Positions 9,626-40,426 of a DNA stretch of 64,000 nucleotides are shown one piece after another (position 1 is the first letter of the stretch; each line of letters starts with the position of its first letter). The notes under the pieces are model-generated. The model had not been told where the DNA came from. It saw only the letters and a program-made list of their open reading frames with translations, and did no database searches. The translations under genes were made by a program, and so were the position numbers. This stretch comes from Methanomassiliicoccaceae archaeon (GTDB lineage: Archaea > Thermoplasmatota > Thermoplasmata > Methanomassiliicoccales > Methanomassiliicoccaceae), in the NCBI GenBank assembly GCA_963728405.1, contig CAVSJV010000005.1, positions 32,001 to 96,000 of the forward strand, written 5' to 3'.

Positions 9626-9634
9626 AGTCCCACC

Positions 9635-11337: not shown

Positions 11338-11416
11338 AGGGTGACATATTTTATTAGCCCAGGGAACATTAGCCGCTTGTTAGCACGCCTCATTAACGGC
11401 GTATCATGGTGATAAG

Positions 11417-12226
11417 ATGAGCAAGAAGTTCGGGTTCATTGGTGCCGGCAACATGGCCGAGGCGATGATGAAAGGCATGATCTCTTCGGGCGTGTGCGCG
11501 GCCGAAGAGCTGATCGCCAGCGAGGTCGTCCCTGAGCGGAGGGAGTACATGGCCCGGACTTTGGGGATCATGGTCACGGCTGATAACGTCGAGGTGGTCA
11601 AGGAGGCCAAGATCCTTATACTGGCCGTCAAGCCGAACATCGTGGCCCCGGTCTTGGATGAGCTTAAGCCCATCCTTACCGCCGACCATCTGGTAATCTC
11701 CATCGCTGCCGGGGTCAAGATATCCTACATCGAGGCACATTTGAACTGGGGCGTCCGGGTGGTCCGGGTCATGCCCAATCAACCCTGTCTGGTGGGCGCG
11801 TCCGCTTCCGGCTTCGCCCTCGGCAAGTCGGCCAAGAGGGAGGACAAGGATCTGGTCCAGAAGATCTTGAACTCCGTGGGAGTGGCCTTCGTCATGGACG
11901 AGAAACTGCTCGACGCGGTCACCGGCCTTAGTGGTAGCGGGCCTGCTTACATCTACTTGGTGATCGAGGCGATGGCCGACGGCGGCGTACTGGCCGGTCT
12001 CTCTAGGGATGTGGCCCAGACCCTGGCCGCCCAGACCGTACTGGGAGCGGCGAAGACCGTCCTGGAGACCAAGGGGCATCCAGGCCAGTTCAAGGACATG
12101 GTGGCCTCCCCGGCTGGAACGACCATCGAGGGCCTGAAGGTCCTGGAGGAGTCCGCGGTCCGCGGGGCGTTCATTCGGGCGGTTGAGGCCGCCGCCAAGC
12201 GCTCGGTCGAGCTCGGTAAGAGCTAA
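11417..12226 (+). CDS. proC: Pyrroline-5-carboxylate reductase
   Basis: [29 protein letters not shown]. Confidence 0.96.
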
Positions 12227-13950
12227 CCGGACCGAGGCTTGCGCCGGAACATCAGGGCGAAGACCGTCCGGGGGAGGCTGCGGAATACGCTTGGCGTATC
12301 CCACTCCAACTCCCTCTTCTGACAGATAGTAGACTCCATAAGCTCGTCGCCTCTCTCCTTTAATCGGGCCATGAACACGGCCCGTTCGGATGGGTCCTTT
12401 ATAGCCATGGCCAGGTCCACTTCCTTCATCAGGAGGCGGGCGTCGTGGGAACGCTCATCCCGCGACTTCAGTTCCTCGGCGCTCATCAGTCCGACCTCGA
12501 CCCGGACCTGATTGAGGCGATCGGCCGCGTCGTAGGAAGTCTCCACGATCTGCTCCCTGGTCATGTACTTGGTCTCATAGGAGAGGACGTCTCTCCAGTT
12601 GGGGTTGGCCAGGAGGGAGCGGTGCTCTTCCAGCGTCCGGGCGAAGAGCCGATAGCCGTACTTATCGGGGTTCTCGAAGGCAATGCTGCCCGGATCAAGG
12701 AACGGTGCCAACGGCGAGGTGTACACGAACAGGCGCCGGTCGTTCCCGTTCTCGGCGTACAGCCGCCTGGTGTAATCGGCCGATCCCACCGCCGATGCCG
12801 GCGTCTGCTCCGGGAGGCCGATCATGAAGAACATGTCGAAGCGCTGACAGCCATTGGTCAGGGCGTCCTTTATGCTCCTCTCCATCGAGGCGTTGTCGAA
12901 CCGCCTGCCCAGAGCGTAACGGACCCTCTCCTCATGAGAATCGGGAGAGAACTGTATGGAGTACCGGTCGAACGTCCTCTGGGCATCCTGGAAGTAGGAT
13001 GCCGGGGCCGGGGTGAACAGCTCGAGGATGATATGGTTGTCAATGCCCAATCTCTTGGCCTCGGTGAAGAACCGCTGGGCGTACTTGTCCCCGTTCTGGC
13101 GGAGGTCGCCGACCACGAACACCGGGGCCTTAAGATAGTTCTGGACGTTGTAAATGTCCTCGGCCACCTTTTCCGGGCTGCGGAATGCCGGTCTCGTCCT
13201 GCCGAGCACTTTTCTCATCGCCCCGCAGCTTCCTCCGCACACCGCGCAGGATTGGGAGCAACCGCGAACGGTGAACGCCGCGGTGAGAGGGTAGCGGTCC
13301 CAGTCCTTGAACGGCTTCGCCCCTTCTAGGTCGCGGTGCCTGATGACCGAGCGTATGATCCACCCGTAATCTATATCCAGATAGTCTAGGTCCCCGGGGA
13401 CGTGGGTCAGGTCGTTGACGACGGCCTTGCCCCCCATCTTCCAGGTGAGGTTGGGAACGGACGAGAGGTCAGGCCCCCTCTCAAGGGCGGCCATCAATAA
13501 GGCCAACGGCTCCTCGGTGGAGTCCCCACGCAGCACCAGGTCCACCTGAGGATAGTTGATCAGCTCCTGATGATAGTAAGAAGAGGAGAATCCCCCGAAC
13601 AGGACCTTGGAATCTGGATGCAGGCGCTTCACGATCTCCGCGACGGCCAGGGAGCCATGGGCGTGGGGAAGCCAGTGCAGGTCGATGCCGAACACGGCCG
13701 ACCGAAGTTTGCCGATGAGCTTCTCTACGTCCAGGTCCGGATCGTTCAGCATCATGCTGGCCAGGTTGATGATGCGGACCCGGTACCCCTGTTTGTGGAG
13801 GTGGCTGGCCATGGTGGTGAAGCCGAACGGGTACATCTCGAAGACCGGGGTCGAGGGTACAAGGTCACTGACCGGTCCATAGAAGATAGACTCCTTTCTG
13901 AAATCGTAAACGCTGGGAGCATGTAAGAGGATGAGGTCTTCCTTGTGCAC
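12223..13950 (-). CDS. B12-binding radical SAM protein (Ta0216/TIGR04190-like)
   Basis: [11 protein letters not shown]...FEMYP N-terminus, B12-binding region ([11 protein letters not shown]), CxxxCxxC (CSQSCAVC). Confidence 0.85.
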
Positions 13951-18828: not shown

Positions 18829-19719
18829 TCAGTATGCTAGGCCGTTGGCCTGGCAGGCCGAAATGACCGTGTTCTTCATGAGCATCACGATGGTCATGGG
18901 ACCGACTCCACCAGGGACGGGGGTGATGGCCGAGGCTTTTTCCTTGACCGCCTCGAAGTCCACGTCCCCTACCCAGCGGTAGCCCTTCTTGGCGGCAGGA
19001 TCGTCCACCCGGTTGGTTCCCACGTCGATCACTACTGCTCCGGGCTTGATCATGTCCGCGGTGATGAACTTCGGAGAACCTATGGCCGCGACCACAATAT
19101 CGGCCATCCGAGTGATGGCCGCCAGGTCCTTGGTCCGCGAATGGCAGACCGTGACCGTGGCGTTGGCGCCCTTCTTCTTCTGCATGAGGATGGCCGCCAC
19201 CGGCTTGCCGACGATGTTGCTGCGGCCGACGATGACGACGTGCTTTCCGTCCGGGTCGTTACCCGAGCGGACCAGCATCTCCTGTATGCCATGGGGGGTC
19301 GCTGGAAGGAACATGGGGTCGCCGATGAGCATCCGCCCCACGTTCATGGGGTGGAAGCCGTCAGCGTCCTTGGCCGGGTCGATGCGCACCAGCACCTTGT
19401 TCTCGTCGATGTGCTTGGGGAGCGGCAGCTGAACAAGGAAGCCGTGGATGCGGGGATCGGCGTTCAGCTCATCGACCACCGATAACAACCTCTCCTCCGT
19501 GGTGTCGATCGGCAACAGGATGGTCCTCGAGTAAAGGCCCAGCTCCTCGCAGGCCTTGCCTTTGTTGCGCACGTACTGCTGGGATGCTGGATCCTCGCCC
19601 ACCAGCACCACTGCCAGACCGGGAGTGATGCCCTTGCTCTTAAGCTCGGCGATCTTGACCCTGAGCTCTTGTCTTATCTGTTCGGCGACCTCGGGACCGC
19701 TGATGACCTTGGCGACCAT
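18829..19719 (-). CDS. folD: Methylene-THF dehydrogenase/cyclohydrolase
   Basis: YVRNK, VQLPLP, KDADGFHP, GRSNIVGKP, TPVPGGVGPMT. Confidence 0.97.
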   Translation of the reverse strand: MVAKVISGPEVAEQIRQELRVKIAELKSKGITPGLAVVLVGEDPASQQYVRNKGKACEELGLYSRTILLPIDTTEERLLSVVDELNADPRIHGFLVQLPLPKHIDENKVLVRIDPAKDADGFHPMNVGRMLIGDPMFLPATPHGIQEMLVRSGNDPDGKHVVIVGRSNIVGKPVAAILMQKKKGANATVTVCHSRTKDLAAITRMADIVVAAIGSPKFITADMIKPGAVVIDVGTNRVDDPAAKKGYRWVGDVDFEAVKEKASAITPVPGGVGPMTIVMLMKNTVISACQANGLAY

Positions 19720-20335: not shown

Positions 20336-22020
20336 ATGAAGGCTGACATCGAGATCGCTCAGGACGCCGTGATGCAACCCATCGAGATCGTGGCTGAGAA
20401 GATAGGGTTATCCAGGGACGACCTCGAACCGCACGGCCGCTACATGGCCAAGGTCCCTCTAGAGGTGCTGCGCCGCTTCGACCGCCGACCGGACGGCAAG
20501 CTCGTGCTGGTCACAGCGATCACCGCTACCAAGGCCGGGGAAGGGAAAACGGTCACTTCCATCGGACTGATGCAAGCCTTGGGAAAACTGGGCGTCAAGG
20601 TCATGGGCGCGTTGCGGGAGCCTTCCATGGGCCCAGTGTTCGGGCTGAAAGGCGGCGCCACCGGCGGAGGCCTCTCCCAGGTCTACCCGATGTGGGACAT
20701 CGACCTCCACTTCACCGGTGATATCCACGCGGTAGGCTCGGCCCATAATCTGCTCTCAGCGATGGTGGAGAACCATCTCACCAAGGGGAACGATCTGAAC
20801 ATCGATCCCACTCGAGTGGTGTGGAAGAAAGCAATGGACATGAACTGCCGCGAGCTCCGGGAGATCGTCGTCGGCCTAGGGGGAAGGAGTGTGGGTGGAG
20901 TGCCGCACGAGAGCGGCTTCGTCATCACCGCGGCCTCCGAGATCAGTGCCATCCTGGCGCTGGCCACGTCGATCGAGGACCTCCGCCACCGACTGGAACG
21001 GATGGTAGTGGCCTACGATATGCAAGGGAATCCCGTGCGGGCCGGCCAGATCCGATGCGTTGGGGCCATGGTGATGCTGCTGAAGGACGCCGTCAAGCCC
21101 AACCTGGTCCAGACCCTAGAGGGCCAACCGGTCTTCGTTCACGGCTTCCCGTTCGCCAACATCGCCCACGGCAACAACAGCCTGCTCGCTACCAAGTATG
21201 CGCTGAAGATGGCCGACGTGGTGGTGACCGAGGGCGGGTTCGCCGCTGACCTGGGGGCCGAAAAGTTCTTTGACATCGTCTGCCGCCAGGCTGGGTTCAA
21301 GCCCAGCTGTGCGGTGATCGTGGCGTCCATCCGGGCGCTCAAGATGCACGGCGGGGCCTGTCTCCAGGACGCCCTGGACTGCGAGCGGCCTAACATCGAA
21401 GCGCTCCAAAAGGGGTTCTCCAATCTGGACAAGCACATCGAGAACTGTCCGCAAGTACGGCGTCCCGGTGGTGGTGGCGCTCAATCGCTTCCCGACCGAC
21501 ACTCCGCAGGAGATCGAGGCGGTCAGGAGGCACTGTGCGCAGCTGCAGGTCCCCAGCGCCCTTTCCGACGTGTTCGCCCAGGGTGGTGAGGGAGGACGGC
21601 AACTGGCCGAACAGGTACAGCATGTTCTTAACACCGAGGTGAGCCACTTCAAGCCTCTCTACGATACGGACCTGCCGATCAAAGAGAAGATCCGGATCAT
21701 CGCCACCGAGATCTACGGGGCCAAGGACAGTTCGATATATTGGCACGGCTGACCGGGACATCAGGGCGATCGAACTGGCCGGGAACAACAAGCTCCCCAT
21801 CTGCATGGCCAAGACCCAGCTGTCCATCACTGACGATCCGAAGCTCAAGGGCGCCCCCAAGGGCTGGACCCTCAATGTTAAGGAGGTACTATTGTCGGCC
21901 GGCGCGGGTTTCGTCGTCCCCTTGTGCGGCGAGATCATGCTCATTCCTGGCCTGCCGTCGGAGCCCGCCGCAGAACGGATCGACTATTCCGACGACGGGC
22001 GGTTCATCGGGCTGAGCTGA
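20336..22020 (+). CDS. fhs: Formate-tetrahydrofolate ligase (frameshifts near 21450 and 21740)
   Basis: [48 protein letters not shown]. Confidence 0.95.
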
Positions 22021-22045: not shown

Positions 22046-22685
22046 TCACGGACCATCTTGGTCTGGGCTTTGATGAGCTGACTCACCACGAACTGTGCCG
22101 ACCGCGGCCAGGTCCTCGGTATTGAGGAATCGGGGGGCTGAATCGTCGAACAGGACGTTCGCATTCCCTCGGACCTTGTCATCGCCCCTCCAAACGATCA
22201 CCGTCACTGGCAGCTTGGGAAGGACCTGGATCAGGACCGAAGCATCCCCGAACTCCTGCTTCTTGGCCCCCAGCAGCTCGGCCGTGCTCACCAGCTGAAG
22301 CGGGTATTGATGGAAGTTAGAGCCGATGTACTCGATGACCCGGGTCTTGAAAGCAGGGTAATGCACATTGCCACCGGACAATTGCCGGTAGGAGATGGTC
22401 CTGCCGGTCGGCTGAGATTCATTGGCGTTGTTCAAGTAATGAAGTATAATGATCGCGCCAAGCTTCTTGACGGGCCTGCCATCCATGGTCACGCTCTTAC
22501 ATACCGGGTCGACGACGCATTCCCGGCCAAAACGTACGCAACCGGACCAGGTTGCCATCGATGATCGCGCCAGCGTACTTGGCCTGCGCGGCCAAGTTCT
22601 TGCCGGCCAGTGCGTCCCAGGCCGCCTCCAGGGCGCCCTCATAAGTGTCCTCCTTGATGCCTGGGCACCACTCTTCCTTACTCAC
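22046..22685 (-). CDS. DUF3786-like protein (frameshifted)
   Basis: ILHYL, ISYRQLSGG..Y..F, LPKLPV..IVWRGDD....ANVLFD; N-terminus in ORF 22497-22685. Confidence 0.75.
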
Positions 22686-23500
22686 CTTTCGACCTCCTTC
22701 AGGACATAATCTTCCAGGGTCATGAACTCTATCTCCTTGTCCAACGCCCCCTGTAGCAGCTGCCGTATCCGCCCCACCTCATCGTTGGCCTGCTCGGCGG
22801 TGCGGAGGCCGGTCAACGACTCGACGATGTGCCAGCTGTGGTCCGCCAGGACCATGATGCCGTCCCCGTATTGGTCTAGGATATGGAGGTAATCGGCCAC
22901 CGGCCTCTTTCCTTCATGGAGGGGCCACAGATAGGACTGCATGCGCTTTCCACGCGGGTCAAAACCCTGGGCCAAGGGAATCTCCCACAGCTCGCCCGGA
23001 AGAGGGTACGGCCGCAGATCGCCCGGGAGATCGGCGAATCTGGTTGAGTCATAGAGCAACCCACGCTTGATCAGGACCGCGTCCACTCGCCCATCGATAT
23101 GCTGATAGGGCGCCCGGAACCCCACCGGCCGACGCCCCATCACATCCTCGATCGCGGCCAGGGAACGGCCGATGATGGCGTCGAGCCAGTCAGGGGAGGG
23201 GGCGATGCCGGTGCTCTCCCCGGTCAGGTCCTCATGCGCGTACCCATGGGCGGCGATCTCATGGCCATCCAGGAGATCGGAGATGCTCCTTTTTCCCGGC
23301 CAGCGTTCGATGGCCTCTCCTTCCAGGAAGAAAGTGCCCCTGATGCCCAGCTCGTTCAGCAGGTCGACGAGGAGCTCCAACCCTCTGGCCGTCGAGGTGA
23401 ACCGGGGGATCGGACAGTTCCGGCTGCACGCCTCTAACTGGCCGGACCGAGGCTCGTTGACATCGCGGTCCACGTCCACCGTGAAGGCAGCATAGCGCAT
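22682..23500 (-). CDS. Polysaccharide deacetylase family protein
   Basis: FTVDVD, GTFF, HEIAAHGYAH, GFRAP, YDST. Confidence 0.87.
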   Translation of the reverse strand: MRYAAFTVDVDRDVNEPRSGQLEACSRNCPIPRFTSTARGLELLVDLLNELGIRGTFFLEGEAIERWPGKRSISDLLDGHEIAAHGYAHEDLTGESTGIAPSPDWLDAIIGRSLAAIEDVMGRRPVGFRAPYQHIDGRVDAVLIKRGLLYDSTRFADLPGDLRPYPLPGELWEIPLAQGFDPRGKRMQSYLWPLHEGKRPVADYLHILDQYGDGIMVLADHSWHIVESLTGLRTAEQANDEVGRIRQLLQGALDKEIEFMTLEDYVLKEVER

Positions 23501-23613
23501 GCTGGTTACATCGCCCCCGGCCTAATAACGCTTTATGGCCCAACCCATCAATTTTCGCCAAGCTTAAATACGGATAATCGTTTGGAATCAGCCAGTCCGG
23601 TAGGGGTATCGAC

Positions 23614-24622
23614 ATGAAGCAGGTCCTGGTCATTGGCGGTGGGGCAGCAGGCATGGCCGCCGCCCTCGAGCTGGCCAGGAGGAACATACCTTCCACGGTT
23701 ATCGAGCGGTCCGCCATGATGGGCGGCCTGTCCAAGGAACTGGCGTGCAAGGGCGATCCCCACTGCGTACGCTGCGACGCCTGTTACCCCCATGATCTCC
23801 GGAGGGAGGCGGCCCTCGATCCATTGATAACAATGATCACTGGTGCCGAGGTCCGAAGGATCGAACACCAGAGCGACGGGATAAAGGCGCTCGTCCGCAC
23901 CCCCCATCGCGATGAGGAACTGGTGGCGGGGGCGGTGATCGTGGCCACCGGCGCTCTCCCCTACGATGCCGACAAGGATGCTCGCCTGCACCACTCTGAC
24001 TGCCCGGACGTGCTATCATCGCAGGAGGTAGAAAGGGCCCTGGTCGAGAAGGGGCACCTTGCCGTACCTTCGACCGGGATGCCGGCCAAGAACATGGCCA
24101 TCGTCCAGTGCGTCGGTTCAAGGGACTGTCCGTTGGGGAATGCCTTACTGCTCAAAGGCCTGTTGCAAGTACGCGTACAAGCTGGGGCGCCATCTTAGAG
24201 GGCTGTATCCGGAGCTGGATCTCACCTTCTTCTTCATGGACTGGAGGCCTTTGGAGGACGCCAAGAACGCTCTGGAGGAGTGGGCGTCCCAGGACGAAAA
24301 AGTAAGGGTCGTTCGTTCTCGGCCTTCGGAGGTCCTGCCCGGCGACCGGCCGGTCGTCCGCTACGCTCCGCCCGGGGATTTCGTGGTCGAGGAAGGTTTC
24401 GACCTGGTCATGCTGTCGGTGGGCCTGGTCCCCGATCCCAGCAACCTCGACCTGGCGGAGATGTTGGAGATCACGGTCGATCAGTATGGTTTCCTCATCT
24501 CGGACAAGCGTAACATCCTCATCGCCGGGACCTGCTCGGGACCGAAGGACATCCGGGAGAGCGTGGAGGAAGGTGTGACCGCAGCGGGTCTGGCCGCCCG
24601 GGTCCTGGAGGCGGGACGATGA
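23614..24622 (+). CDS. hdrA: Compact HdrA-like flavoprotein (frameshift near 24130)
   Basis: VIGGGAAG FAD motif, CVRCDAC, GAVIVATG, IVQCVGSRD...YCSKACC, GPKDIRESV. Confidence 0.85.
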
Positions 24623-25719
24623 TCGGCCCCACCATCCTGGTAGTGGGAGGAGGACGTTCGGCCTTAGAGGCGGCCAAAGAGATCGTCGCCCAGCGCGGCA
24701 GGGCCGTTCTGGTCCGGCCGGTCGCCAAGAGGGCATGTCATCTCCGAACCCCCAGCGGCATTGAGACCCTCGACTCTGCCGAACTGATGGGCCTGGATGG
24801 CAGCCCCGGCCGGTTCACCGCTCACCTGCGGGTCGAGGACGAATTGGTCATCGTCAACTGCGGTGCGGTGATCCTGGCCGATGAGGCCCCATCCTCGAAC
24901 GAGGGGGCCCCGGGGGCGATGGGGCTCGATGAGGCCTTGGCGGGGTCGCTCCCCGAGCATGCGAAGAGCATGGCGATCGTGCTGGGTGCGTCCGCTCCCC
25001 GCGCGGCGTACCGGCGTTCCGTGGAGCTTGCGCTCCAATCGATCTCCCGCTCCGACCGTCCCAAGGTAACGCTGTTCGTCAAGGATATGAAGATCTATGG
25101 CCGGGACGAGATCGCCTACGCCGAGGCCCAGAGGCAAGGTGTCAGGGTCGTGTGGAGCGAGCATACTCCGGTGCTTGCCTATGGCGGCCGGACGTCGGTG
25201 AAGGCCATCGATTCACCTTCAGGTATAGAGATAAACTGTGAGCCCGATCTCCTAGTCGTCGAGCTGGGTCTTCCCGGTCCGCTCAGTTCATCCATCGGCC
25301 GAGCCGCCGGCGTACTGGGGTCGGGCAGGGGCAACATCAGCATGGGGGCCGCCAGCTCCCTGCGGGAGGGCGTTTTCCTGTGCGGCCCGGATGCATCCGA
25401 GCTCCTGGACGATGAGCTGATGATCGGAGCGAGGGCGGCGGCCACCAGGGCCATGTCCGCAGCGCTGCATCCAGTGATCCGCGCTCCCCAGGCCGCCACG
25501 GTCGACCGGGACAAATGCTCCGCCTGCCTGACCTGCGTACGGTGCTGCCCCTTCCATGCGCCCCGTATCGACGATGAGGGCAAGGCCGCTATCGAAGGCG
25601 AACTATGCCAGGCCTGCGGCATATGCGTGGCCGCATGCCCCAGCCGGGCCCTCAGCCTACCATCGGACCAAGGAATGGATAACGTGCTGACATCGCTGTT
25701 CAAGGAGGCGTCCCCATGA
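24619..25719 (+). CDS. Second, degenerate HdrA-like module with C-terminal 2x[4Fe-4S]
   Basis: VVGGGRSA, GAVILA, GVFLCG, then CSACLTCVRCCP and CQACGICVAACP as at the HdrA C-terminus. Confidence 0.75.
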   Translation: MIGPTILVVGGGRSALEAAKEIVAQRGRAVLVRPVAKRACHLRTPSGIETLDSAELMGLDGSPGRFTAHLRVEDELVIVNCGAVILADEAPSSNEGAPGAMGLDEALAGSLPEHAKSMAIVLGASAPRAAYRRSVELALQSISRSDRPKVTLFVKDMKIYGRDEIAYAEAQRQGVRVVWSEHTPVLAYGGRTSVKAIDSPSGIEINCEPDLLVVELGLPGPLSSSIGRAAGVLGSGRGNISMGAASSLREGVFLCGPDASELLDDELMIGARAAATRAMSAALHPVIRAPQAATVDRDKCSACLTCVRCCPFHAPRIDDEGKAAIEGELCQACGICVAACPSRALSLPSDQGMDNVLTSLFKEASP

Positions 25720-26123
25720 CCGGACCTAGTATCGCCCTTTTTTGCTGTACCAATGCCCGTGCGGCCCTGTCACCGGCAGGCGGGGATGAGGAGCGATCGC
25801 CCGACATCTCCATCATCGAGCTACCCTGTTCCGGTCGCATTGACGAGGTAACGATCATCAAAGCATTGCGCAACGGGGCCTGGGTGGTCATGGTCGTAGG
25901 CTGCCTGGAAGGCAACTGCAAGTACGGCGCGGGCAACTACCAGGCCTGGAGGCGGGTGGAGGAAGCGCGCTCCCTGCTCCAGCAGCTGGGCGTGGACCCC
26001 CAGCGGGTCCAGATGTTCAACGTGGCCTCGAACCAGCACTCCCGCCTTCTGAATGCCATGAATGAGATGAGGGAGCGGGCGCTCAAGCTGGGACCGATCA
26101 GGATACTGGAGGGTGACCGATGA
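25716..26123 (+). CDS. mvhD: MvhD-like [2Fe-2S] subunit
   Basis: FCC, LPCSGRID, GCLEGNCKYGAGN. Confidence 0.9.
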   Translation: MTGPSIALFCCTNARAALSPAGGDEERSPDISIIELPCSGRIDEVTIIKALRNGAWVVMVVGCLEGNCKYGAGNYQAWRRVEEARSLLQQLGVDPQRVQMFNVASNQHSRLLNAMNEMRERALKLGPIRILEGDR

Positions 26124-26824
26124 TAATCGCGGAGCAGAAGGACCTGGGGCAGATCGTCAAGATGCTGGAGGGGCAGAAGAGGGTCCTGGTCGCAGGATGC
26201 CGTTCCTGCGTGGCGATTTGCCTGGCTGGTGGAGAGCGGGAAGTATCGACCCTGGCGGAGGCCCTCCGTCTGCATGCAACCATCGAAGGACGGGACCTGG
26301 ACGTGGCCGAAGTGACCCTGGAACGTCAGTGCGAGAAGGAATGGGTCAGGGAGATGGAACCCCTGATGCGCGATCGCGATATCGTCCTGTCCCTGGCCTG
26401 TGGGGTAGGGGCCCAGGTGGTTCAAGAGATGTATCCTACAGTGAGGGTAGTGCCCGGGCTCAACACCTCCAACATGGGAGCGCCCGAGGAACAGGGCATC
26501 TATCTGGAGAAATGCGGAGGATGCGGAGATTGCGTGCTTCACCTTACCGGGGGCATCTGCCCGGTGGCCCGCTGCTCCAAGTCGTTGATGAACGGCCCTT
26601 GTGGGGGCGCTCAGAACGGCAAATGCGAGGTGAGCCCCGAAACCCCCTGTGGTTGGGAGCAGATATATCGCAGCCTGGAAAGGCTGGGCCGGTTGGACCT
26701 GTTGGAGGAGAACATCCCACCCAAGAACTGGCTGCCCTCCCGCTCCGGGGGAGTGCGCCGGATCGTCCGCCGCTCGGCGGTCCAACGGCCCGAGGAGAAG
26801 AACTCCAGGGAGGGGAACAGATGA
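26120..26824 (+). CDS. metV: Methylene-THF reductase small subunit MetV
   Basis: GCRSCVAICLAGG, RQCE, ACGVG, CGGCGDC...CP..RCSKSLMNGPCGG. Confidence 0.88.
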   Translation: MIIAEQKDLGQIVKMLEGQKRVLVAGCRSCVAICLAGGEREVSTLAEALRLHATIEGRDLDVAEVTLERQCEKEWVREMEPLMRDRDIVLSLACGVGAQVVQEMYPTVRVVPGLNTSNMGAPEEQGIYLEKCGGCGDCVLHLTGGICPVARCSKSLMNGPCGGAQNGKCEVSPETPCGWEQIYRSLERLGRLDLLEENIPPKNWLPSRSGGVRRIVRRSAVQRPEEKNSREGNR

Positions 26825-27738
26825 GATCCCAAAGCAACCTGGAGAAGGTCCTCGAGGGTGGGCACTTCGCGGTGACCGCGGAGATAGGCCCCCCGAAGTC
26901 AGCCTGTGCCGAAGGGGTGAGGAAGAAGGTCCGCGCCCTGAAGGGGTGTGCCGATGCCCTCAACCTGACCGACAATCAGACCGCCATCGTCCGCCTATCG
27001 AGCTTAGCGTCCGGGGTGGCCTGCCTGCAGGAGGGCGCCGAGCCGGTCATGCAGATGACCTGCCGCGACCGCAACCGTATCGCCATGCAGTCCGATCTTC
27101 TCGGTGCGGCCGCCCTGGGGATCAAGAACGTGCTGTGCATCTCGGGGGACCACCAGGTCTTCGGCAATCAGAGGGAGGCCAAGAACGTCTACGATCTTGA
27201 CCCCATCCAGCAGCTCATGGTATTCCGCCAGATGCGCGACGAGGGCAAGGTGTGGGGTGGAGATGTCCTGGAGGAGCGTCCCATGGTGTATCTCGGGGCT
27301 GCGGCCAACCCCTTTGCTGATCCGTTCGAGTTCCGGGTGACCCGGTTGGCCAAGAAGGTCAAGGCCGGAGCGGACTTCATCCAGACCCAGGCAGTGTTCG
27401 ATCTGGACCGCTTCGAGCGATTCATGACCCTGGTGCGAGAGAGAGGGCTGGACGAGAAGGTCCACATACTCGCCGGGGTAGTGCCCCTGCGCTCGGCCAA
27501 TGCCGCGAGGTACATGAAGACCAAGGTCTCCGGAATGAGCGTACCAGATGAACTGGTGGAGCGCATGAAGGGGGCCCAGGACCCCAAGAAGGAGGGGATC
27601 CGGATCTGCGTGGAGACGATCGACCGGCTGAGATCCATCAAGGGCGTCCATGGCGTACATATCATGGCCATTGGGTGGGAGGAGGTCGTCCCCTCGATCG
27701 TGGAACAGAGCAGCCTCCTGCCCAGGTCGGAGATATGA
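26821..27738 (+). CDS. metF: 5,10-methylene-THF reductase large subunit
   Basis: TAEIGPPK, NLTDNQ, TCRDRNR, ISGDH, KKVKAGADFIQTQ; ATG at 26821. Confidence 0.94.
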   Translation: MRSQSNLEKVLEGGHFAVTAEIGPPKSACAEGVRKKVRALKGCADALNLTDNQTAIVRLSSLASGVACLQEGAEPVMQMTCRDRNRIAMQSDLLGAAALGIKNVLCISGDHQVFGNQREAKNVYDLDPIQQLMVFRQMRDEGKVWGGDVLEERPMVYLGAAANPFADPFEFRVTRLAKKVKAGADFIQTQAVFDLDRFERFMTLVRERGLDEKVHILAGVVPLRSANAARYMKTKVSGMSVPDELVERMKGAQDPKKEGIRICVETIDRLRSIKGVHGVHIMAIGWEEVVPSIVEQSSLLPRSEI

Positions 27739-27919
27739 GGCCTCCGGTAGGGGGCACCCTATCAGTACTCAGCCTATCGTAGATGGGCCGCTCTGGCGGT
27801 CCGTGAACCGCGCCTGGCGTCGTCGGGTCCTTGTTGTTTCTCTACCAGCAACAGATCCGGTTTCATTACCAGGATCCCCGCATAATTATATTTCTCCGCG
27901 TTGCCATCCCCGGTGGCCT

Positions 27920-28680
27920 ATGGATGAGAAGCGTTGCTGGTTCTGCGGTCGCGGTCGGCGAGAGCTGATCGAAGATCTGCCCCCGGGCTTTTGGGACGAG
28001 CAGCAGGACCTGTTCTTGGAGATCGAGGTCATCGGCAGAGTCAGTGGGGTCGACAAGGTGAGGCCGGGTGATCCCGCCCACAGCCGTCATTTCAAGCGCC
28101 ATGATGGGCCGCAGGATGAGGTACATTCGTTCGATGACCGGCGGTTCGCGGTGGTCGCCAGGAAATTCATGAAGGTAAGCGTCTGCCGGGTGTGCCGAAG
28201 CGTGGAGACCGGGCTGTCCTCCCTTTCCGACAACAGCAAGGGCACGATCCCATATCGTTCGATCTACACTCCCGGTTCAGAAGAGCTGGCAGTAGCCCGT
28301 AACTGGGAAAAGTTGCGGTCGGAGGAGAAGCTTAAGGAGGCCGAGTATCCAGACGAAGCCTACCGTGCTCTTCTGGCAATCAGAGCATTGAGCGATGGCG
28401 GACCGATATCTCTATGGGACCTCTCCCGAGAGATGAACGTGTTCAATCACCGGGCGCTGGAGCGACCCATCGGCCACCTCATAGCGCAATGTCCCGAGAT
28501 CGGGGAAATGGACCGTAAGGCCCTGATCTTGCGCCCTACCAGCCCCACAGCGGGCGACCGTCCTGATCGATGAGCTGATCGCCAAGTATGAGGCCTTCTA
28601 CGGACAACATGAAGTTCGCCCCGCTCCCCCCGCGCCACCGTCCCAACACAACGAGGTCTTGGCCCGGATCAAGAAGTTGA
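27920..28680 (+). CDS. Hypothetical protein with CxxC...CxxC zinc motif (C-terminus probably frameshifted)
   Basis: MDEKRCWFCG...CRVCR; the ORF stops at 28573 but a shifted frame continues to ~28680. Confidence 0.5.
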
Positions 28681-29840: not shown

Positions 29841-31867
29841 CTACGCCTCGGTCAGGAATTCCGGGAACGCTTCCTCGGGCCATTCGAAGCTTGCGAACAC
29901 GCCGTAGAACAGCATCTGGTCGTTCTCGAACGCGAAGCAGACATCGTTGCTGTGGACGCCCACATAGTTGTTGGTGTACAGCACGGCGCTAAGGCTCAGC
30001 TCCACCGGGTAGTCCAGGATGCAGATGGTCATGGTTTCGTTGTCGTAGGCGGTGGAATCGAACTGCACGACCGCCCTATTGTCGTTACCCATGATGACCG
30101 CGGACTCGGTGTGGTAGATGGCCGTGTCGAGTTCCTGGCTGACGCACTCGTGCATGCATGAATGAGTGACCGTGGTGTGGGCAGTGACGTTGGTCCAGGT
30201 GTCCACAGTGACACGGTCATCATAGTTGTGCACGACCACCATCTGCTCATAGCAGACCTCAGTGGCGAACTCCAGCTGGGAATCCAGACCGGTGTGCTCC
30301 AGGGGATTGACCTCGTCGCAGGCATAGGTGGCCTTGGTCTCCATGGTCAGCACGCAGGGCTTCAGCGGCACATCAAGTGTCAGGTAGACGTAGACTCCCA
30401 TGACCCCAGCGTCGTCATCGTAGTTGCAGATCTGGGCATAGGCCACGTTCCTGAGGTCGCATGAGCCGAGCATGAGAGCTGAGACGTTCTCCAGGGTGAA
30501 GCTCATCGCATACGGGTAGCAGTAGCTCTCCCCGGCCTGCAGCACTGGCATGCAGGAGATGTCCACATCGATGGTGGCGACATCCACCCAGCACTCTCCG
30601 TTCCACATCTGCACGGTGTCGGTGACCATCAGACCTTCGGTCGGGCAGTCCCCGGTGTTGGTGACCTTGATGCTCCCCCAAACATTGTAGTTCCCGTCAT
30701 CCCTGATGAGGAACTGGGCAACCTCGACCGGCAGCATCTCAGTGATGCTCTCGGCAGAGCTAGCGTCCACATTGTTGACGGTCCAGCCATCGGGCAGGGC
30801 CATGCCAAGCTCGATCGCCTCGGTCCAGGATACATTGGCCGTCTTCTCGACGCACAGGGTGGTCTCGATCGGGCCGCTGTAGATGGTCACTGGGACATGG
30901 TAGGATATCGCATCGGTGTCCTCGGGAACCAGTATGGCCTGGTTGCATAGCACATATGTCATGTTCCTGGGTGCGTCGACGTTGGTCACTTTGAGGTTGA
31001 CCATGAACTCATAGTGGGTGCATGCGTCGTCCTCAAGGTTCCACGGTCCAACATCGCTCAGAGCCTCGACCTCGAACCCACAGGGTATGCTGAAGTCGTC
31101 CCTGAGGCAGGCCTTTTCATCAACGATGATGATCGTCGGGCAGTCCGGCAGGCAGAACTCTTCGCAGGCCTGTACGCCGAAGCACTCGCCATCATGGTCA
31201 ACGAAGTTCGAGATGATCACGTCGGCCACGTTGCGGTACTGCACGCCCTCGATGGGTTCGAAGACGATCTCGTACGCGTAGGCGTAGCTCTCCCCGGCCG
31301 CTAGCACGGGGTGGCAGGTGGTGTCCACTTGGAAGGTCACGTAATCAACGAACTCTCCCTCGCAGGCCATCGTCTGCACGGTGTCGCAGATGACCAGGTC
31401 CTTGGTATCGAAGCATCCGGTGTTGGTGACGATTATCTCGCCCCTGACGCCGTACACGTCGGTAACGCATGGTCCGGACCGGTCGGCTGATAGCATGTAC
31501 GAGACAACAGCGCTCTCGCCGGGCTCGATCTGGATATCATAGCCGTCGGAATCCTGGGCCTTCAGGACATCATCGTTCTCGTAGACCTCCTTGTACACCG
31601 ACCAGGTGTAGGTATCGGTCTTCTCCCAGAATCCGCTTGCGGTCTTATCAGCGCTGATCGTGGTCAACGCCGGCATTACGGTCTGGTCGTCCCCATTCAC
31701 ATTATCGTCGCCAGTCGTTGGCGTTGTACCCGGTTCGGTGTTAGTATCAGGGTTGGTGTCGCCCTGGTCCGCAGACCCGGTCGATACAGGACCCTGTGCA
31801 GCTATCACCGCTACGGCACCTATTACAACGACTAGCGCTATCGCTAGTGCGATTATTTTTGTTCCAT
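29841..31867 (-). CDS. Secreted acidic Cys-rich protein with two Ig-like repeats
   Basis: Probable start ATG GAA CAA AAA with an A-run slip into KIIALAIALVVVIGAVAVIAA signal/anchor; repeats VTNTG..T.DL.V.DTVQ..PVL.AGESY.Y.Y...RNVA. Confidence 0.75.
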
Positions 31868-32787: not shown

Positions 32788-32880
32788 TGTTTCCCTACTC
32801 TTTATCCCCATGCCCCAATTTCCGGGATGCGGAACGAAAAAGCTTTCACATATATAGTGAAGAAGCGCGCTCGCCCACGT

Positions 32881-34005
32881 ATGTTGACCGCGGCAGAGGT
32901 CAAGAGGCTGGGTCGTCAGGCCGGCTTCGATATCGTTCGTATCGCCACCGCTGGCCCTTTTCCTGAGCATATGGCCGCGGTAGCTGAGAGGAAGGCCAAG
33001 GGCTGGGTCCCCCTGGAGATGGAGAGGGGGTATGGGGCGATATCCGATCCGAAGCGCTCTTCCGACCCCCGCTGCCTGATGCCGGAAGCAGGCTCGATCA
33101 TCTCCCTCGGTCTGGGATACTACCTGCGAGGTGAGGCTGACCGGTCCTCGCCGGGGCAACCCTGCGGACGGCTACCAAGGAACGGGTGGCGGGACCTCTC
33201 CGGCGAGGCGGGCCGCCGCCGGGACAAATTCGTTCAATATCTGGAGGAGCATGGCGCCCGGTGTGCTCCGGCGCCGGACCTTCCGTCCAAGAAGGCAGCA
33301 GAACGGGCGGGCGTGGCCGGCTATGCCAAGAGCGGCATCGTCCACGCTGAGATATATGGGCCATGGGTCCATCTGGTGACAGTGGTCACCGATGTTGTGC
33401 TGGAGGCGGACAGCCCCATCGAGATCAATTGCGGCAGCTGCCGGAGATGCGTCGATGCCTGCCCCACCAAGGCCATCCGGGCCCCGTTCGTCCTGGACGC
33501 CAGCAGGTGCCTGGCCCATATGCTGGCTTCCCGGGATTGGTTACCCGTCGAGCTAAGGTCGGCGGTCGGCAATCGGATCTATTCCTGCGATCAATGCCTG
33601 GAAGTATGTCCTCGAGCCCTCAATCCCATGATGGTCGATGCCCCTTCCCCCGACCGACTGGGGCGGTGGACCAATTCTCCGGAGCTATTGCCGCTGCTGA
33701 AGATCGGCGACGAGGAGTTCCGTCAACGGTTCTCTTACCTGGACTGGTATTTGGCCGATCCCATACTGCTCAAGCGGAACACCATCATCGCCCTGGGCAA
33801 TTCCGGGGACCTCGTGGCCGTACCTGCCCTCATCGGCATGCTGGAGAGCGACGAACCGATTCTAAGGGGTCATGCCGCCTGGAGCCTGGGACGCCTGGGA
33901 AGTGCTGATGCCAAGGCTGCATTGGGGGCACGGTTGAAAAAGGAAGAGGATGGCCAGGTAAGGGGAGAGATCGAGCTTGCCCTCAACGATACTGGACGAC
34001 CCTAG
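32881..34005 (+). CDS. QueG-like (epoxyqueuosine reductase family) cobalamin/Fe-S protein with HEAT repeats
   Basis: AGFD, AAERAGV, YGPWV, CGSCRRCVDACPT, SCDQCLEVCP, RN..IALGN, RGHAAWSLG. Confidence 0.8.
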   Translation: MLTAAEVKRLGRQAGFDIVRIATAGPFPEHMAAVAERKAKGWVPLEMERGYGAISDPKRSSDPRCLMPEAGSIISLGLGYYLRGEADRSSPGQPCGRLPRNGWRDLSGEAGRRRDKFVQYLEEHGARCAPAPDLPSKKAAERAGVAGYAKSGIVHAEIYGPWVHLVTVVTDVVLEADSPIEINCGSCRRCVDACPTKAIRAPFVLDASRCLAHMLASRDWLPVELRSAVGNRIYSCDQCLEVCPRALNPMMVDAPSPDRLGRWTNSPELLPLLKIGDEEFRQRFSYLDWYLADPILLKRNTIIALGNSGDLVAVPALIGMLESDEPILRGHAAWSLGRLGSADAKAALGARLKKEEDGQVRGEIELALNDTGRP

Positions 34006-34778
34006 TCCCTCAGAAAGTCGTCGCAGTACAACTTCTCATTGAGGAGCACCTGCCCGGCCTTCACGATGCTCATCAGCTCCTCGTCCTCGGGATCGCAGAT
34101 GGCGGCGGAGAGCCCGGCGCCCATGAGCATCGCGAGGTAGGTGCGGTTGAGCAGGCTGCGCTGCTTGGTGCCGTTGGACACATTGCTCAGGCCGACCACT
34201 GTGCGGGGCGTGGGATCGTTCAGTCCCTGGAATAGATGAACGGCCTGCACCACCTTCCGGCCCTGGTCCTGGGCCGCGCTGGTCGGGAGCACCAGGGGAT
34301 CGAGGTATAGCCGGTCGGGCATGATATCGTATTCCATGGCCTTGGTCATCATCAGCATGGCCATCTCCGCGCGGGCGTCGGCCGAGTTGGGGATGCCCCT
34401 CTCATCCATGCATAGGCAGATGATCTCGGCATCGTGCTCCTGGCAGAGGGGGAAGAACTTTTCCATTCGCTTTTCCTCGGCGGTGGTGGAGTTCATGATG
34501 ACCCGGTTCTTGGCCACCCGGAGGCCCGCCTCCATCGTCTTCGGTCCGGAAGTATCGATGGACAGGGGAACAGACGCCACTTCCTGCACCGTGGACACCA
34601 GCCACTCCATGGCCGCCGGTCCGTCCTCTCTCCCCGGACCGACATTGACGTCCAGGGCCTGAGCCCCACACTCCAACTGCTTCACGGCGAGGTCCTGGAT
34701 GAACTTGGCGTCCCGCTGGTCGATCGCCCTTCCCACTGAGGTGAACAGGCCGTTGATCCGCTCGGAGATGACTAGCAT
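34002..34778 (-). CDS. acsE: Methyl-THF:corrinoid Fe-S protein methyltransferase
   Basis: ISERING, LDVNVG, LSIDT, NST, DPLVLP, GLSNVSNG...LNRTYL. Confidence 0.9.
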   Translation of the reverse strand: MLVISERINGLFTSVGRAIDQRDAKFIQDLAVKQLECGAQALDVNVGPGREDGPAAMEWLVSTVQEVASVPLSIDTSGPKTMEAGLRVAKNRVIMNSTTAEEKRMEKFFPLCQEHDAEIICLCMDERGIPNSADARAEMAMLMMTKAMEYDIMPDRLYLDPLVLPTSAAQDQGRKVVQAVHLFQGLNDPTPRTVVGLSNVSNGTKQRSLLNRTYLAMLMGAGLSAAICDPEDEELMSIVKAGQVLLNEKLYCDDFLRD

Positions 34779-34929
34779 GGTAGTTCCAAGCGTTGAGTGC
34801 GGCCACCGCATAAAAGCCTTTCCTGGCCACCCTCCTGCCGCCTATAAAATCGCAGTTCTGCTGAAGATACGCTGCAGCTGAACCCAAAGCTAATATGTCG
34901 GGGACAGGATGGAAACGTCGGAGATCTGA

Positions 34930-35294: not shown

Positions 35295-35377
35295 GAACAA
35301 CTTTCATTAACAGGCGTGGGATATACCATTGGCAAACTGTTATGACAGCTTGCCTCTCACGGTTTGGAGGCTATTTA

Positions 35378-36934
35378 TTGGTCAAGATCGAGCGCGCTCT
35401 GATCAGCGTATCTAACAAGGACGGTATCGTCGACTTCGCCCGCGGGCTAAGCTCCTATGGTGTGGAGATCATCTCCACCGGCGGCACCGCCACTCTGCTG
35501 GACAAGAATGGTATCAAGACCGTGAACATCTCCGATGTCACCGGTTTCCCGGAAATGCTGGATGGGCGGGTTAAGACCCTTCACCCTAACATCCACGCGG
35601 GACTGTTGGCCCGAAGGGACATGCCCGAGCACATGGCCAAGCTGGACGAGTTCGGTATCAAGAAGATCGACATGGTGGTGGTGAACCTCTATCCGTTCCG
35701 GGAGACCGTGCTCAAGCCGAACGTCTCGCTGGAAGAGGTCATCGAGAACATCGATATCGGCGGCCCGTCCATGATCCGGGCCGCTTCCAAGAACTACGAA
35801 TCCGTAGCGGTGATCACCAACCCCGTTCGGTACCTGCCGATCTTGGAGGAGATGAAGGCCAGCGACGGTGTCGTAGGGCACGAGACCCTCAAGGGCCTCA
35901 TGCTGGAGGCGTTCCAGAACACCGCCAACTACGATGCGATGATCGCGCAACATCTGGCCGGCATCTTCCCCGGACCCCAGTTCCCTGCCACCCTGACGGT
36001 AGGCATGGAAAAGGTCCAGGACCTGCGTTATGGAGAGAATCCGACCCAGCAGGCAGCTTTCTACGGCGATCCCTTCGTCACTGGAGTGGCCGTCTCCCGA
36101 ATGAAGCAGCTTCACGGCAAGGAGCTATCGTTCAACAACATCCTGGATATCGAGTCCGCCCTCTCCCTCCTCCGTGAGTTCGAGGACCGCGCCTGCGCCA
36201 CGGTCATCAAGCACACCAATCCCTGCGGCATCGCCTGCGACGACAAGATCTACGATGCGTTCATGGTCGCCTATAACGTCGATCCGCTGGCCGCTTTCGG
36301 GTGTGTCATCGGTCTGAACCGCGAGTGTGATGTCCCCACCGCCGAGGAGATCTCCAAGCACTTCGTGGAGATCGTGTTCGCCCCGTCCTTCGATCTCCAG
36401 GCGCTCGAGCTACTGCAGAAAAAGAAGAACATCCGGCTCATGACCACGCCCGGGCCGATCACCCTGGCCGACGCGCCCAAGATCAAGATGAAGTACATCA
36501 AGGGCGGCATGCTGGTACAGACGGCCGACAATGGTCAGGTGGCGTCCGAGCACCTCAAGGTAGTGACCAAACGGTCACCGACGCCTTCCGAGGTCAAGAG
36601 CATGCTCTTCGCCAACCGGGTGTGCAAGCACATCTGGTCCAACACCGTCATCCTCGCCAAGGGGGAGAGGGTGGTGGGAATAGGCGCCGGACAAATGTCA
36701 CGGGTGGATTCGTCGTTCATCGCCGCCCACAAGGCCGGGGAGAACGCCAAGGGCTCGGTGATGGCATCCGATGCCTTCTTCCCGTTCCGTGACGGGGTGG
36801 ACGAGGCCGCCAAGGCCGGCGCCACTGCTATCATCCAGCCGGGGGGGAGCATCCGGGACCAGGAGGTTATCGATGCCGCCAACGAGCATGACATGGCCAT
36901 GGTGTTCACCGGGGTCCGGGTGTTCCGGCACTGA
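35378..36934 (+). CDS. purH: Bifunctional AICAR transformylase/IMP cyclohydrolase
   Basis: RALISVS, GRVKTLHP, IDIGGPSM, LRYGENP, KHTNPCG, SDAFFPF; TTG start after GGAGG. Confidence 0.96.
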   Translation: MVKIERALISVSNKDGIVDFARGLSSYGVEIISTGGTATLLDKNGIKTVNISDVTGFPEMLDGRVKTLHPNIHAGLLARRDMPEHMAKLDEFGIKKIDMVVVNLYPFRETVLKPNVSLEEVIENIDIGGPSMIRAASKNYESVAVITNPVRYLPILEEMKASDGVVGHETLKGLMLEAFQNTANYDAMIAQHLAGIFPGPQFPATLTVGMEKVQDLRYGENPTQQAAFYGDPFVTGVAVSRMKQLHGKELSFNNILDIESALSLLREFEDRACATVIKHTNPCGIACDDKIYDAFMVAYNVDPLAAFGCVIGLNRECDVPTAEEISKHFVEIVFAPSFDLQALELLQKKKNIRLMTTPGPITLADAPKIKMKYIKGGMLVQTADNGQVASEHLKVVTKRSPTPSEVKSMLFANRVCKHIWSNTVILAKGERVVGIGAGQMSRVDSSFIAAHKAGENAKGSVMASDAFFPFRDGVDEAAKAGATAIIQPGGSIRDQEVIDAANEHDMAMVFTGVRVFRH

Positions 36935-38956: not shown

Positions 38957-40426
38957 GTGGACCGGAAGATACCGCGCTGCATGAGCACCCAGCATCCTGA
39001 CAACGTCAACGCCCCTTTCTTCGCCGAAAGCTCGGAAATGGGCGGGGAGGACGAGATCCAGGAAGCCTACTACGTGTTCTCCCACCTGGACTGCAATGAG
39101 CAGATGTGGGACTGCGAGGGCAAGGAGGTCGACAACTTCGTGGTCAAGAAGCTGCTCTCTAAGTACGACTGGTACTTCCAGGACAAGCAGATCGGTAAGG
39201 ACGTCGTACCTCACGTTGAGGGTACCGAACCCCACTGTGGAGAAGGACGAGGCCAAGATACTGCTCGAGACCCTCGAGTCAATCCCACGCTCGTTCGACA
39301 CGGCCAAGCTATTCTACCAGAACGATATCCCCCCCATCTTTGAGGTCATACTGCCCATGACCTCCTCGGCTGTCTCCCTGGACCGGGTGTACCGCTATTA
39401 TCGCGATTTCGTTGTGGGCAAGCAGCATATATCGTTCCGCAAGGGCGATGTCACCCTGGCCGAGTGGATCGGGACCTTCGAGCCGGAGAAGATCGATGTC
39501 ATCCCGCTGTTCGAGGACCTGCGCCACATGATGGACGCCCACGAGATCACCAGGGAGTACCTGAAGGACAAGGACGGTGGAGCACCAGCGGGTGTTCCTC
39601 GCCAGGTCCGACCCGGCCATGAACTATGGGCAGGCTAGCGCCATTCTGATGAACAAGGCCGCCCTCTATAACCTCCAGTTGCTGGAGGAGGACACCGGCG
39701 TCAAGATGTGTCCGATCATCGGGGTCGGCTCGGCGCCGTTCCGAGGCAATCTCAAGCCGAACAACGTGGACCGGCTGATGGAGGAGTATCCTTCGGTGCA
39801 GACCTTCACCGTCCAATCGGCCTTCAAGTACGATTACTCGCACGACGAGGTCCGCAGCGGCATCCAGAAGATCAACGAAGGGACCAGAACCAAGGCGATG
39901 GTGGTGGATACCGCCCGCTGCGAGGCCATCATCGAGAAGTGCTCCAACTCCTACCGGGAGAAGATCATCAAGCTGGCCCCCCTGATCAACGAGGCGGCCA
40001 ACTACGTGCCCCCGCCGCCGGAAGAGGAAGTTGCACATCGGCCTGTTCGGCTACTCCCGCAGCCTGGAGGGGATCAAACTGCCTCGGGCGATCGGCTTCT
40101 GCTGCGCCTTCTACTCCCTGGGGATACCGCCAGAGATCCTTGGCCTGGACGCCCTGGATGATAGCGACCTAGATTACCTCAGGCAGGTCAGCCCGCACTT
40201 CGACGAGAGCATGAAGGACGCGCTGCAGTACATGAATCCCGAGTCCATGAAGACCCTGCCTTTGAAGGTCCGCATGTCCGTGGACAACCTGGGCCTGGAC
40301 TACGAGGTCAACGAGAAGCACCGCCAGATCACCTCCAAGATCATGGAGAACATCAAGAACTCCACTGGCAAGGGGATGGAGGAATTCGTACTGCGGGCCG
40401 CGCACCTGAGGGGCTTCCTGGGCTGA
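38957..40426 (+). CDS. ppcA: Archaeal-type PEP carboxylase (three frameshifts)
   Basis: IPRCMSTQHPDN, MWD.EGK, EVILPMT, VIPLFE, FLARSDPAMNYG, GSAPFRG, LPRAIGF. Confidence 0.93.

Follow-up and report, generated by a model that had tools for sequence, protein, structure and literature searches.

A MetVF-type methylene-tetrahydrofolate reductase operon with a split and minimal HdrA in a Methanomassiliicoccaceae archaeon

The stretch analysed here (the window) comprises 64,000 nucleotides of contig CAVSJV010000005.1, positions 32,001 to 96,000 of the forward strand, from the assembly GCA_963728405.1 of a Methanomassiliicoccaceae archaeon. The database names of close homologs place this organism in the genus Methanomassiliicoccus, and mcrA was found in its genome. 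Among the open reading frames (ORFs) of the window, five genes on the + strand at 23614-27738, hdrA1, hdrA2, mvhD, metV and metF, form an operon for a MetVF-type methylene-tetrahydrofolate (methylene-THF) reductase in which HdrA is split and MvhD is included, but hdrBC is absent.

Operon layout and the two HdrA halves

The features of the operon are the following.

23614..24126, + strand: 5' part of hdrA1, 171 codons, with the flavin adenine dinucleotide (FAD) motif GGGAAG, the acidic residue ending beta-2, the four-Cys motif CKGDPHCVRCDAC and CVGSRD
24127, + strand: extra base in hdrA1, a T within GAC[T]GTCCG that shifts the frame; the aligner may also put it at 24126
24128..24622, + strand: 3' part of hdrA1, 165 codons, with YCSKACC, the other cysteines that ligate the [4Fe-4S] cluster of the thioredoxin-reductase domain, and the flavin motif GPKDIRES
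24619..25719, + strand: hdrA2, 366 amino acids (aa), a degenerate HdrA-like module with a C-terminal ferredoxin domain of 8 Cys (2x[4Fe-4S])
25716..26123, + strand: mvhD, 135 aa, FlpD family (PF02662, 6.7e-33), a [2Fe-2S] electron-transfer protein
26120..26824, + strand: metV, 234 aa, Cys-rich, with the DUF5981 'MTHFR C-terminal' domain (PF12225, 5.9e-36)
26821..27738, + strand: metF, 305 aa, methylene-THF reductase (MTHFR; PF02219, 5.2e-39, residues 7-297)

The original prediction, made from the letters of this DNA, had described five genes coupled by ATGA overlaps, and this was borne out at all four junctions (24619, 25716, 26120 and 26821), each preceded by GGAGG at 7-8 bases, with Pfam supporting the gene identities. 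For hdrA1 the Pfam matches were to FAD/Pyr_redox_2 families (8.6e-11, in the first 120 residues of the frame 23614-24198), and for hdrA2 to 4Fe-4S ferredoxin (Fer4) families only, at the C-terminus. The absence of hdrB and hdrC from the operon extends further than had been claimed, since a domain search found no gene for a CCG-domain (HdrB/HdrD-type) protein on the whole 516-kb contig; the 16 CCG-domain matches in the genome, in at least 8 genes, all lie on other contigs. Upstream of hdrA1, inspection of the 113-bp divergent intergenic region at 23501-23613 shows an AT-rich TTAAATA, some 45 bases ahead of the start codon, which may be an archaeal TATA box.

HdrA1 (~335 aa) aligns to residues 145-224 and 345-567 of the canonical methanogenic HdrA 5odc_A and skips about 225-344, which is the inserted ferredoxin domain. 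Its residues 1-327 align end to end with residues 1-335 of 6tjr_A, a 349-aa minimal HdrA (E 1.7e-28). GGGxAG, the acidic residue after beta-2, CVGSRD, CSxxCC and GPxD were present in 18 of 18 HdrA1 sequences and invariant in an alignment of 15. The original prediction had seen itself at risk if FAD-binding residues were lacking or the modules were decayed in relatives; the FAD motifs proved to be kept in all 18 sequences and the relatives' genes undecayed. A further motif of four cysteines, CKGx3Cx2CDxC, overlaps the Cys197 position of canonical HdrA by our own count on the alignment.

In HdrA2, residues 146-346 align to 419-633 of HdrA and residues 148-346 to 418-625, that is, to the end of the flavin fold plus the ferredoxin domain at the C-terminus, where 8 Cys are conserved in two CxxCxxCxxxCP motifs. 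The protein keeps GxGxxA, but the acidic residue, the GPKDI motif and the cysteines of the CVGSRD/CC cluster are gone, and because of these losses we read its flavin site as dead. The division proposed originally, with CVGSRD...YCSKACC in HdrA1 and a degenerate HdrA2 that lacks this motif and carries two ferredoxin motifs, was therefore found as described.

Neither the N-terminal [4Fe-4S] domain nor the inserted ferredoxin domain (2x[4Fe-4S]) of HdrA is present in the Methanomassiliicoccaceae sequences of either alignment (10 of 10 in each, this genome and 9 relatives). In three sister families of the order (f3, f4 and f6), HdrA1 has the inserted ferredoxin domain, with a continuous alignment to HdrA 145-563, and HdrA2 has the N-terminal cluster domain, aligning to HdrA 3-234 and 416-653. 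An ancestral HdrA1/HdrA2 pair would thus rebuild exactly one functional half of the HdrA dimer. The Methanomassiliicoccaceae pair, judged from these alignments, has lost the whole ferredoxin branch, and the FAD, the CVGSRD/CC cluster and the four-Cys motif would remain. A FastTree phylogeny (SH-like support, midpoint root) was built from 41 hand-picked HdrA1-type ORFs, one per chosen locus, after exclusion of 58 of the 99 candidates. It places nine minimal HdrA1 sequences on one side of a branch with support 93, within a group of 20 Thermoplasmata sequences with support 99. This placement and the conserved flanks of the gene point to a minimal HdrA that arose by domain loss in place, not by replacement.

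By their domain content HdrA1 and HdrA2 are two complementary halves of a single HdrA unit, and they are predicted to bind each other. Of the 41 HdrA1-type ORFs, 16 from other lineages unite both parts in a single reading frame of 919-1224 aa, a fusion of the Rosetta-stone type. Complex prediction, for which the closest relative supplied HdrA1 and the window HdrA2, gave a score of 0.80 against 0.26 for the best control, with partner pLDDT of at least 75 and agreement between runs in at least 65% of contacts. The pass mark of this prediction is reached by 58 of 80 solved complexes and by 2 of 110 mismatched pairs, but HdrA homodimers have already been solved, and the pass may only mirror that likeness.

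Frame breaks in hdrA1 and fhs

The original prediction overlooked the insertion of one base in hdrA1 at ~24127. In the assembly the gene appears as two overlapping frames, 23614-24198 and 24059-24622, and pairwise DNA alignment with the closest relative reveals one extra base between CVGSRD and YCSKACC. With this base removed, the 171 and 165 codons are stop-free, and the junction, where SRD meets VRWGMPYCSK, corresponds to SRDVRRGMPYCSK in the closest relative. The neighbouring formate-THF ligase gene, fhs, lies in three frames, whose Pfam FTHFS matches cover positions 2-369, 374-460 and 486-556, with extra bases at 21446 (AAC[T]GTCCG) and 21729 (GAC[A]GTTCG). The read-through frames of both genes are stop-free and keep every conserved motif, and hdrA2, mvhD, metV and metF have intact frames in the assembly. 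Within the order Methanomassiliicoccales, hdrA1 is single-frame in 17 of 17 loci with the whole cassette, as is fhs in all 18 loci that have it.

When 83 kb from the closest relative were compared with the genome, such breaks proved to be widespread. Twenty-three of the 180 relative ORFs with matches fall over two to four frames here, some of them antisense shadows of the same genes, and after merging there are about 21 break points in ~60 kb (contig CAVSJV010000005.1, 16600-76900, in the window and upstream of it), or ~1 per 3 kb. Unrelated genes are hit too: the archaeal-type phosphoenolpyruvate (PEP) carboxylase gene (~38957-40426) is in four pieces with three breaks and that of RACo (42111-44061) in two pieces, both being unbroken in the closest relative, and an mvhD paralog elsewhere in the genome is also split. 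Among 25 isolated +1 insertions, 7 lie inside AC.N.GT, compared with 1.35% of random positions (binomial p ~3e-8), and 12 lie within 7 bases of ACGT or ACNGT, compared with 5.8% at random; several single-base deletions are located in G runs. Genome-wide, ACGT is depleted (2.11 per kb, ~2.7 per kb in relatives) and ACWGT enriched (0.81 per kb, 0.41-0.64 per kb in relatives). Completeness is 93.75%, whereas 7 of the genus's 10 other genomes reach 99%.

Because the relatives are intact, the breaks recur at ~1 per 3 kb across unrelated genes and the insertions concentrate at ACGT, the breaks in hdrA1 and fhs are very probably assembly or base-calling errors and not gene decay. The pattern possibly reflects systematic indels in long reads at a methylated ACGT motif, although only 7 to 12 of the 25 isolated insertions are ACGT-linked and the others stand in different contexts, which weighs against this explanation. 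That hdrA1 and fhs are true pseudogenes, and the THF one-carbon (C1) branch is decaying in this strain, is a very improbable alternative. As assembled, hdrA1 does carry its +1 insertion and fhs two, and RACo, in the same island, is broken as well; yet the breaks are single-base indels throughout, the read-through frames lose no conserved motif, insertions cluster at AC^GT, genes with no relation to the pathway are broken at the same rate (PEP carboxylase three times), and the other four genes of the operon are unbroken. Biological recoding at RAC^GTYCG-like sites, whether by a programmed +1 frameshift or by editing of the transcript, was considered and rejected as having next to no likelihood: the three hdrA1 and fhs breaks do share (G/A)AC[N]GT(C/T)CG and precede a Val-Arg codon pair, but the extra base is present in no relative, other breaks of the region are G-run deletions or have unrelated contexts, and the ACGT depletion and ACWGT enrichment fit a calling artefact. 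With about one frameshift per 3 kb, apparent pseudogenes in this assembly should not be taken as biology.

Distribution and genomic context

A synteny survey across Thermoplasmata, as the original prediction had proposed, showed that the operon is conserved in most of the Methanomassiliicoccales sampled and beyond. In that order metF was found in 35 of 41 sampled genomes, this one included, and in none of the three sampled from family f7. The full five-gene cassette was present in 17 of the 20 loci fetched around metF, while two loci end at contig edges and one has metF alone. In one genome of the order, metF (56% identity) directly follows a deacetylase-family gene, and hdrA1, hdrA2, mvhD and metV were undetected at that locus. 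When the whole class was sampled, metV turned up in 47 of 201 genomes and in none of 20 from family f7. Of 13 loci taken from other orders of Thermoplasmata, 11 likewise carry hdrA1-hdrA2-mvhD-metV-metF, six of them with fhs immediately upstream; the other two of the 13 have only small ferredoxin-like genes before mvhD-metVF. McrA was not found in any of the five other-order Thermoplasmata genomes tested (completeness 81-98%).

When species-representative genomes were scanned with the HdrA1 alignment, 207 related stretches emerged, from which 79 loci were kept. Among the 52 examined loci not from Methanomassiliicoccus, hdrA1-hdrA2-mvhD is frequent in groups such as Bathyarchaeia, Spirochaetota, Chloroflexota and Thermodesulfobacteriota, and it is followed by metV-metF in a Syntrophaceae metagenome-assembled genome (MAG), an unclassified bacterium and three Thermodesulfobacteriota MAGs. 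Since it is found in bacteria and in Thermoplasmata in which no MCR was found, the cassette is neither specific to archaea nor tied to methanogenesis. At the Syntrophaceae locus (787-13731), the cassette is followed by the genes of a Fer4_8/17 protein and of an NAD(P)H flavoprotein resembling GltD/NfnB, and upstream of it are the large subunit of a NiFe-hydrogenase and another metVF pair. A homology search with HdrA2 returned 32 matches, of which the named ones are Methanomassiliicoccus or Methanomassiliicoccales proteins except for one weak match from Victivallaceae, but this search needs shared words and says nothing on restriction. The names of the matches were '4Fe-4S binding protein', 'ferredoxin' and 'heterodisulfide reductase subunit A'.

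The operon lies within a tetrahydrofolate-type Wood-Ljungdahl/C1 gene island at 18829-51769, with the following members and neighbours.

18829..19719, - strand: folD (methylene-THF dehydrogenase/cyclohydrolase), same C1 island
20336..22020, + strand: fhs (formate-THF ligase), conserved operon neighbour, in three frames in the assembly
22046..23500, - strand: DUF3786 gene and polysaccharide-deacetylase-family gene, oriented divergently to the operon; both stay between fhs and hdrA1 across the order
32827-34005: Fer4_16 and HEAT protein
34002-34811: pterin-binding methyltransferase
35342-36934: purH
~38957-40426: PEP carboxylase, archaeal-type
42111-44061: RACo
46857-47612: cooC-like ATPase
47652-49934: two CdhD-family corrinoid-protein genes
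49931-51769: acetyl-CoA synthase beta subunit (ACS beta)

Downstream of metF, an ORF at 27650-28573 is without a Pfam match and is broken in frame near 28546; 6 of the fetched loci conserve it, starting at about residue 78-91. A 655-aa ORF at 29841-31808 on the - strand, also with no Pfam match, lies beside a low-GC stretch (GC 0.49, 28-30 kb). A tRNA scan of the window found none. Elsewhere in the genome there are two more cassettes of hdrA1-like, hdrA2-like and mvhD genes, on contig C7 (300201-303672) and contig C2 (142754-146129, with frame breaks), as well as a lone short HdrA1-like gene on contig C1 (19525-20478), and no CCG-domain gene adjoins any of the three. The HdrA-like matches in this genome were tandem pairs or the lone short copy only, in searches that did not separately target a canonical single-chain HdrA.

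Electron route and comparison with known systems

The explanation we favour, with somewhat better than even confidence in it as a whole, is a reductase of the THF C1 island with an HdrA1/HdrA2 heterodimer, a linear transfer of electrons between two partners and frame breaks that are errors. The locus would encode the methylene-/methyl-tetrahydrofolate oxidoreductase step of a bacterial-type, THF-dependent C1 (Wood-Ljungdahl) island. We infer that the five translationally coupled genes make one complex, and the electron path, redox partner and direction are proposed on the same footing. In it, MetF would provide the catalytic barrel with the flavin, MetV would be its Fe-S partner, and electrons would pass from MetF/MetV to the [2Fe-2S] of MvhD, on to the two C-terminal [4Fe-4S] clusters of HdrA2 and finally to the single FAD on HdrA1. 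The HdrA1-HdrA2 heterodimer would stand in for the HdrA homodimer, each protein supplying what the other lacks. The partner of the HdrA1 FAD may be NAD(P)H, which would react with the flavin, or else a unit of the HdrBC type whose genes lie elsewhere and which would be reached through the retained cluster.

The original prediction put this complex forward as a candidate for electron bifurcation, a claim that is weakened by the domain content of HdrA1 and HdrA2 in Methanomassiliicoccaceae. As described in the accessible parts of PMC9012536, the ferredoxin branch of HdrA runs from the flavin to the cluster of the N-terminal domain, which is completed by Cys197 of the partner, and on to the inserted ferredoxin domain, while MvhD delivers its electrons by way of the C-terminal ferredoxin domain, and HdrBC is reached over the cluster of the thioredoxin-reductase domain. 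Because the N-terminal cluster and the inserted ferredoxin domain are gone, canonical bifurcation in the Methanomassiliicoccaceae complex is doubtful, and linear two-partner transfer seems more likely than a canonical three-way bifurcation to ferredoxin.

Some observations weigh against this reading. The four-Cys motif CKGx3Cx2CDxC is invariant (18 of 18 HdrA1 sequences), and a cluster bound by it could act as a port for ferredoxin, keeping bifurcation possible. Three sister families of the order retain the full ferredoxin-branch domains, and for this reason a bifurcating ancestor is plausible. A link to HdrBC is also possible, as the CVGSRD/CC cluster, from which the path in canonical Hdr goes on to HdrC, is retained and CCG-domain genes are encoded elsewhere in the genome.

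The alternative that survives best, although we consider it unlikely, is a minimal flavin-based bifurcating or confurcating MTHFR that would connect methylene-/methyl-THF to ferredoxin and to a second partner, and could allow methyl oxidation; the second partner would be NAD(P)H, or CoM-S-S-CoB (heterodisulfide) through HdrBC. Oxidation of methyl-THF with NAD+ is endergonic, so a coupling device would be useful. The combination of an HdrA-type FAD protein, MvhD and MetVF is that of the Moorella complex as presented in the available text of PMC8578096 and PMC6085437, the four-Cys motif adjoins the Cys197 position, and the N-terminal and inserted ferredoxin domains are kept in the sister families and in other Thermoplasmata. 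Against this stand the absence of both canonical ferredoxin-branch domains from all ten Methanomassiliicoccaceae sequences of each alignment, and the behaviour of the Moorella complex itself, which, by the portion of PMC8578096 available, fails to reduce ferredoxin and for which bifurcation was not demonstrable; its HdrA is reported there to oxidise NADH. CoM-S-S-CoB cannot be the general partner either, because the cassette occurs where no MCR was found (5 of 5 cassette-bearing genomes from other orders); with the bacterial occurrences, this leaves the originally proposed tie to methanogenic HdrBC or MvhAG without indication.

A bolder form, which we regard as quite improbable, is that the Methanomassiliicoccaceae complex would be a minimal single-flavin bifurcating or confurcating enzyme in which a new cluster bound by the invariant four-Cys motif of HdrA1 is the low-potential port replacing the lost domains and the CVGSRD cluster feeds HdrBC encoded elsewhere. 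If it were true, methyl-THF oxidation would be coupled to both heterodisulfide and ferredoxin, and methanogens regarded as 'obligately H2-dependent' would gain a route for oxidising methyl groups to formate. The part of the original prediction concerned with methyl oxidation is not a novelty, because PMC6147122 had, in the sections available, already proposed such oxidation by the THF route in this order. There, citing Lang 2015, Methanomassiliicoccales are reported to be without formate dehydrogenase and the THF route is proposed to work oxidatively for purine synthesis, and methanol disproportionation to formate is proposed for one lineage.

Should the complex work as proposed, it would show how far HdrA can shrink, with one FAD shared by two half-proteins, and would define the enzyme that links methyl-THF and methylene-THF in Methanomassiliicoccales. 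To our knowledge these organisms have no methanopterin route. Whether methyl groups can supply C1 pools for biosynthesis or be oxidised is decided at the methyl-/methylene-THF step. The complex is also a compact subject for asking what each HdrA domain adds to electron bifurcation, with the sister families that have the ferredoxin-branch domains as natural controls.

This kind of operon is already known from the Moorella complex, and 'Met' in Methanomassiliicoccus is already in print, as seen in the available text of PMC6085437. Supplements and subscription papers (Lang 2015, Mock 2014) aside, we found in the literature no description of a two-gene HdrA next to metVF across Thermoplasmata, of the loss of both ferredoxin-branch domains in Methanomassiliicoccaceae, or of the invariant four-Cys motif of HdrA1. 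The available sections of PMC10804542 and of bioRxiv 10.1101/2020.03.09.984617 do not mention MetF.

One of the closest known systems, from Moorella thermoacetica, is the methylene-THF reductase MetFV-HdrABC-MvhD (Mock et al. 2014, after the accessible parts of PMC8578096, PMC6085437 and PMC9012536). Both systems encode MetF, MetV, MvhD and an HdrA-type flavoprotein together in a THF-dependent Wood-Ljungdahl setting, and in both HdrA consists of two HdrA-like halves with complementary losses, which in Moorella are fused (PMC9012536, in its available text). Here, however, hdrB and hdrC are absent from both operon and contig, each HdrA half has a gene of its own, the organism is a methanogenic archaeon, and the N-terminal cluster and inserted ferredoxin domains are missing, a distinction that is drawn by description and not by direct alignment.

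Poudel et al. 2018 list Methanomassiliicoccus intestinalis as the only archaeal 'Met' homolog and infer a transfer from bacteria (PMC6085437). It belongs to the same order, and by synteny its locus is probably orthologous to the one described here; one single-contig 1.9-Mb Methanomassiliicoccaceae genome has the cassette. Their study counts MetFV-MvhD together with HdrABC assumed from elsewhere in the genome, and a split or minimal HdrA is not described in the part of PMC6085437 available. In ANME archaea there are tandem or fused heterodimeric HdrA paralogs, and Ca. Syntrophoarchaeum has MetFV-HdrA-MvhD clusters (Chadwick et al. 2022, PMC9012536, as far as its accessible text goes). The likeness lies in two HdrA-like modules in which the N-terminal domain and Cys197 are complementary, which implies an asymmetric HdrA heterodimer, and in the clustering of metFV with hdrA and mvhD. 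Unlike in the ANME paralogs as described there, the Cys197-bearing module comes first here and is the only one with FAD motifs, and in Methanomassiliicoccaceae the N-terminal and inserted ferredoxin domains have been lost.

In structural terms, the 349-aa protein of 6TJR, deposited as a fumarate reductase/succinate dehydrogenase flavoprotein domain protein, resembles HdrA1 in its thioredoxin-reductase-like core without ferredoxin domains, but HdrA1 has in addition the four-Cys motif and a dedicated degenerate partner, HdrA2. We know of no link between the 6TJR protein and MetVF or MvhD. Canonical methanogenic HdrA (5ODC, 8RVU) shares with the split protein the FAD domain and CVGSRD/CC cluster, found here in HdrA1 only, the C-terminal ferredoxin domain, found in HdrA2 only, and the docking of MvhD. 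It is, however, one chain of ~650 aa that forms a homodimer with two FAD and carries both an N-terminal and an inserted ferredoxin domain, whereas in the Methanomassiliicoccaceae pair both of these domains are gone and two polypeptides would share one FAD site.

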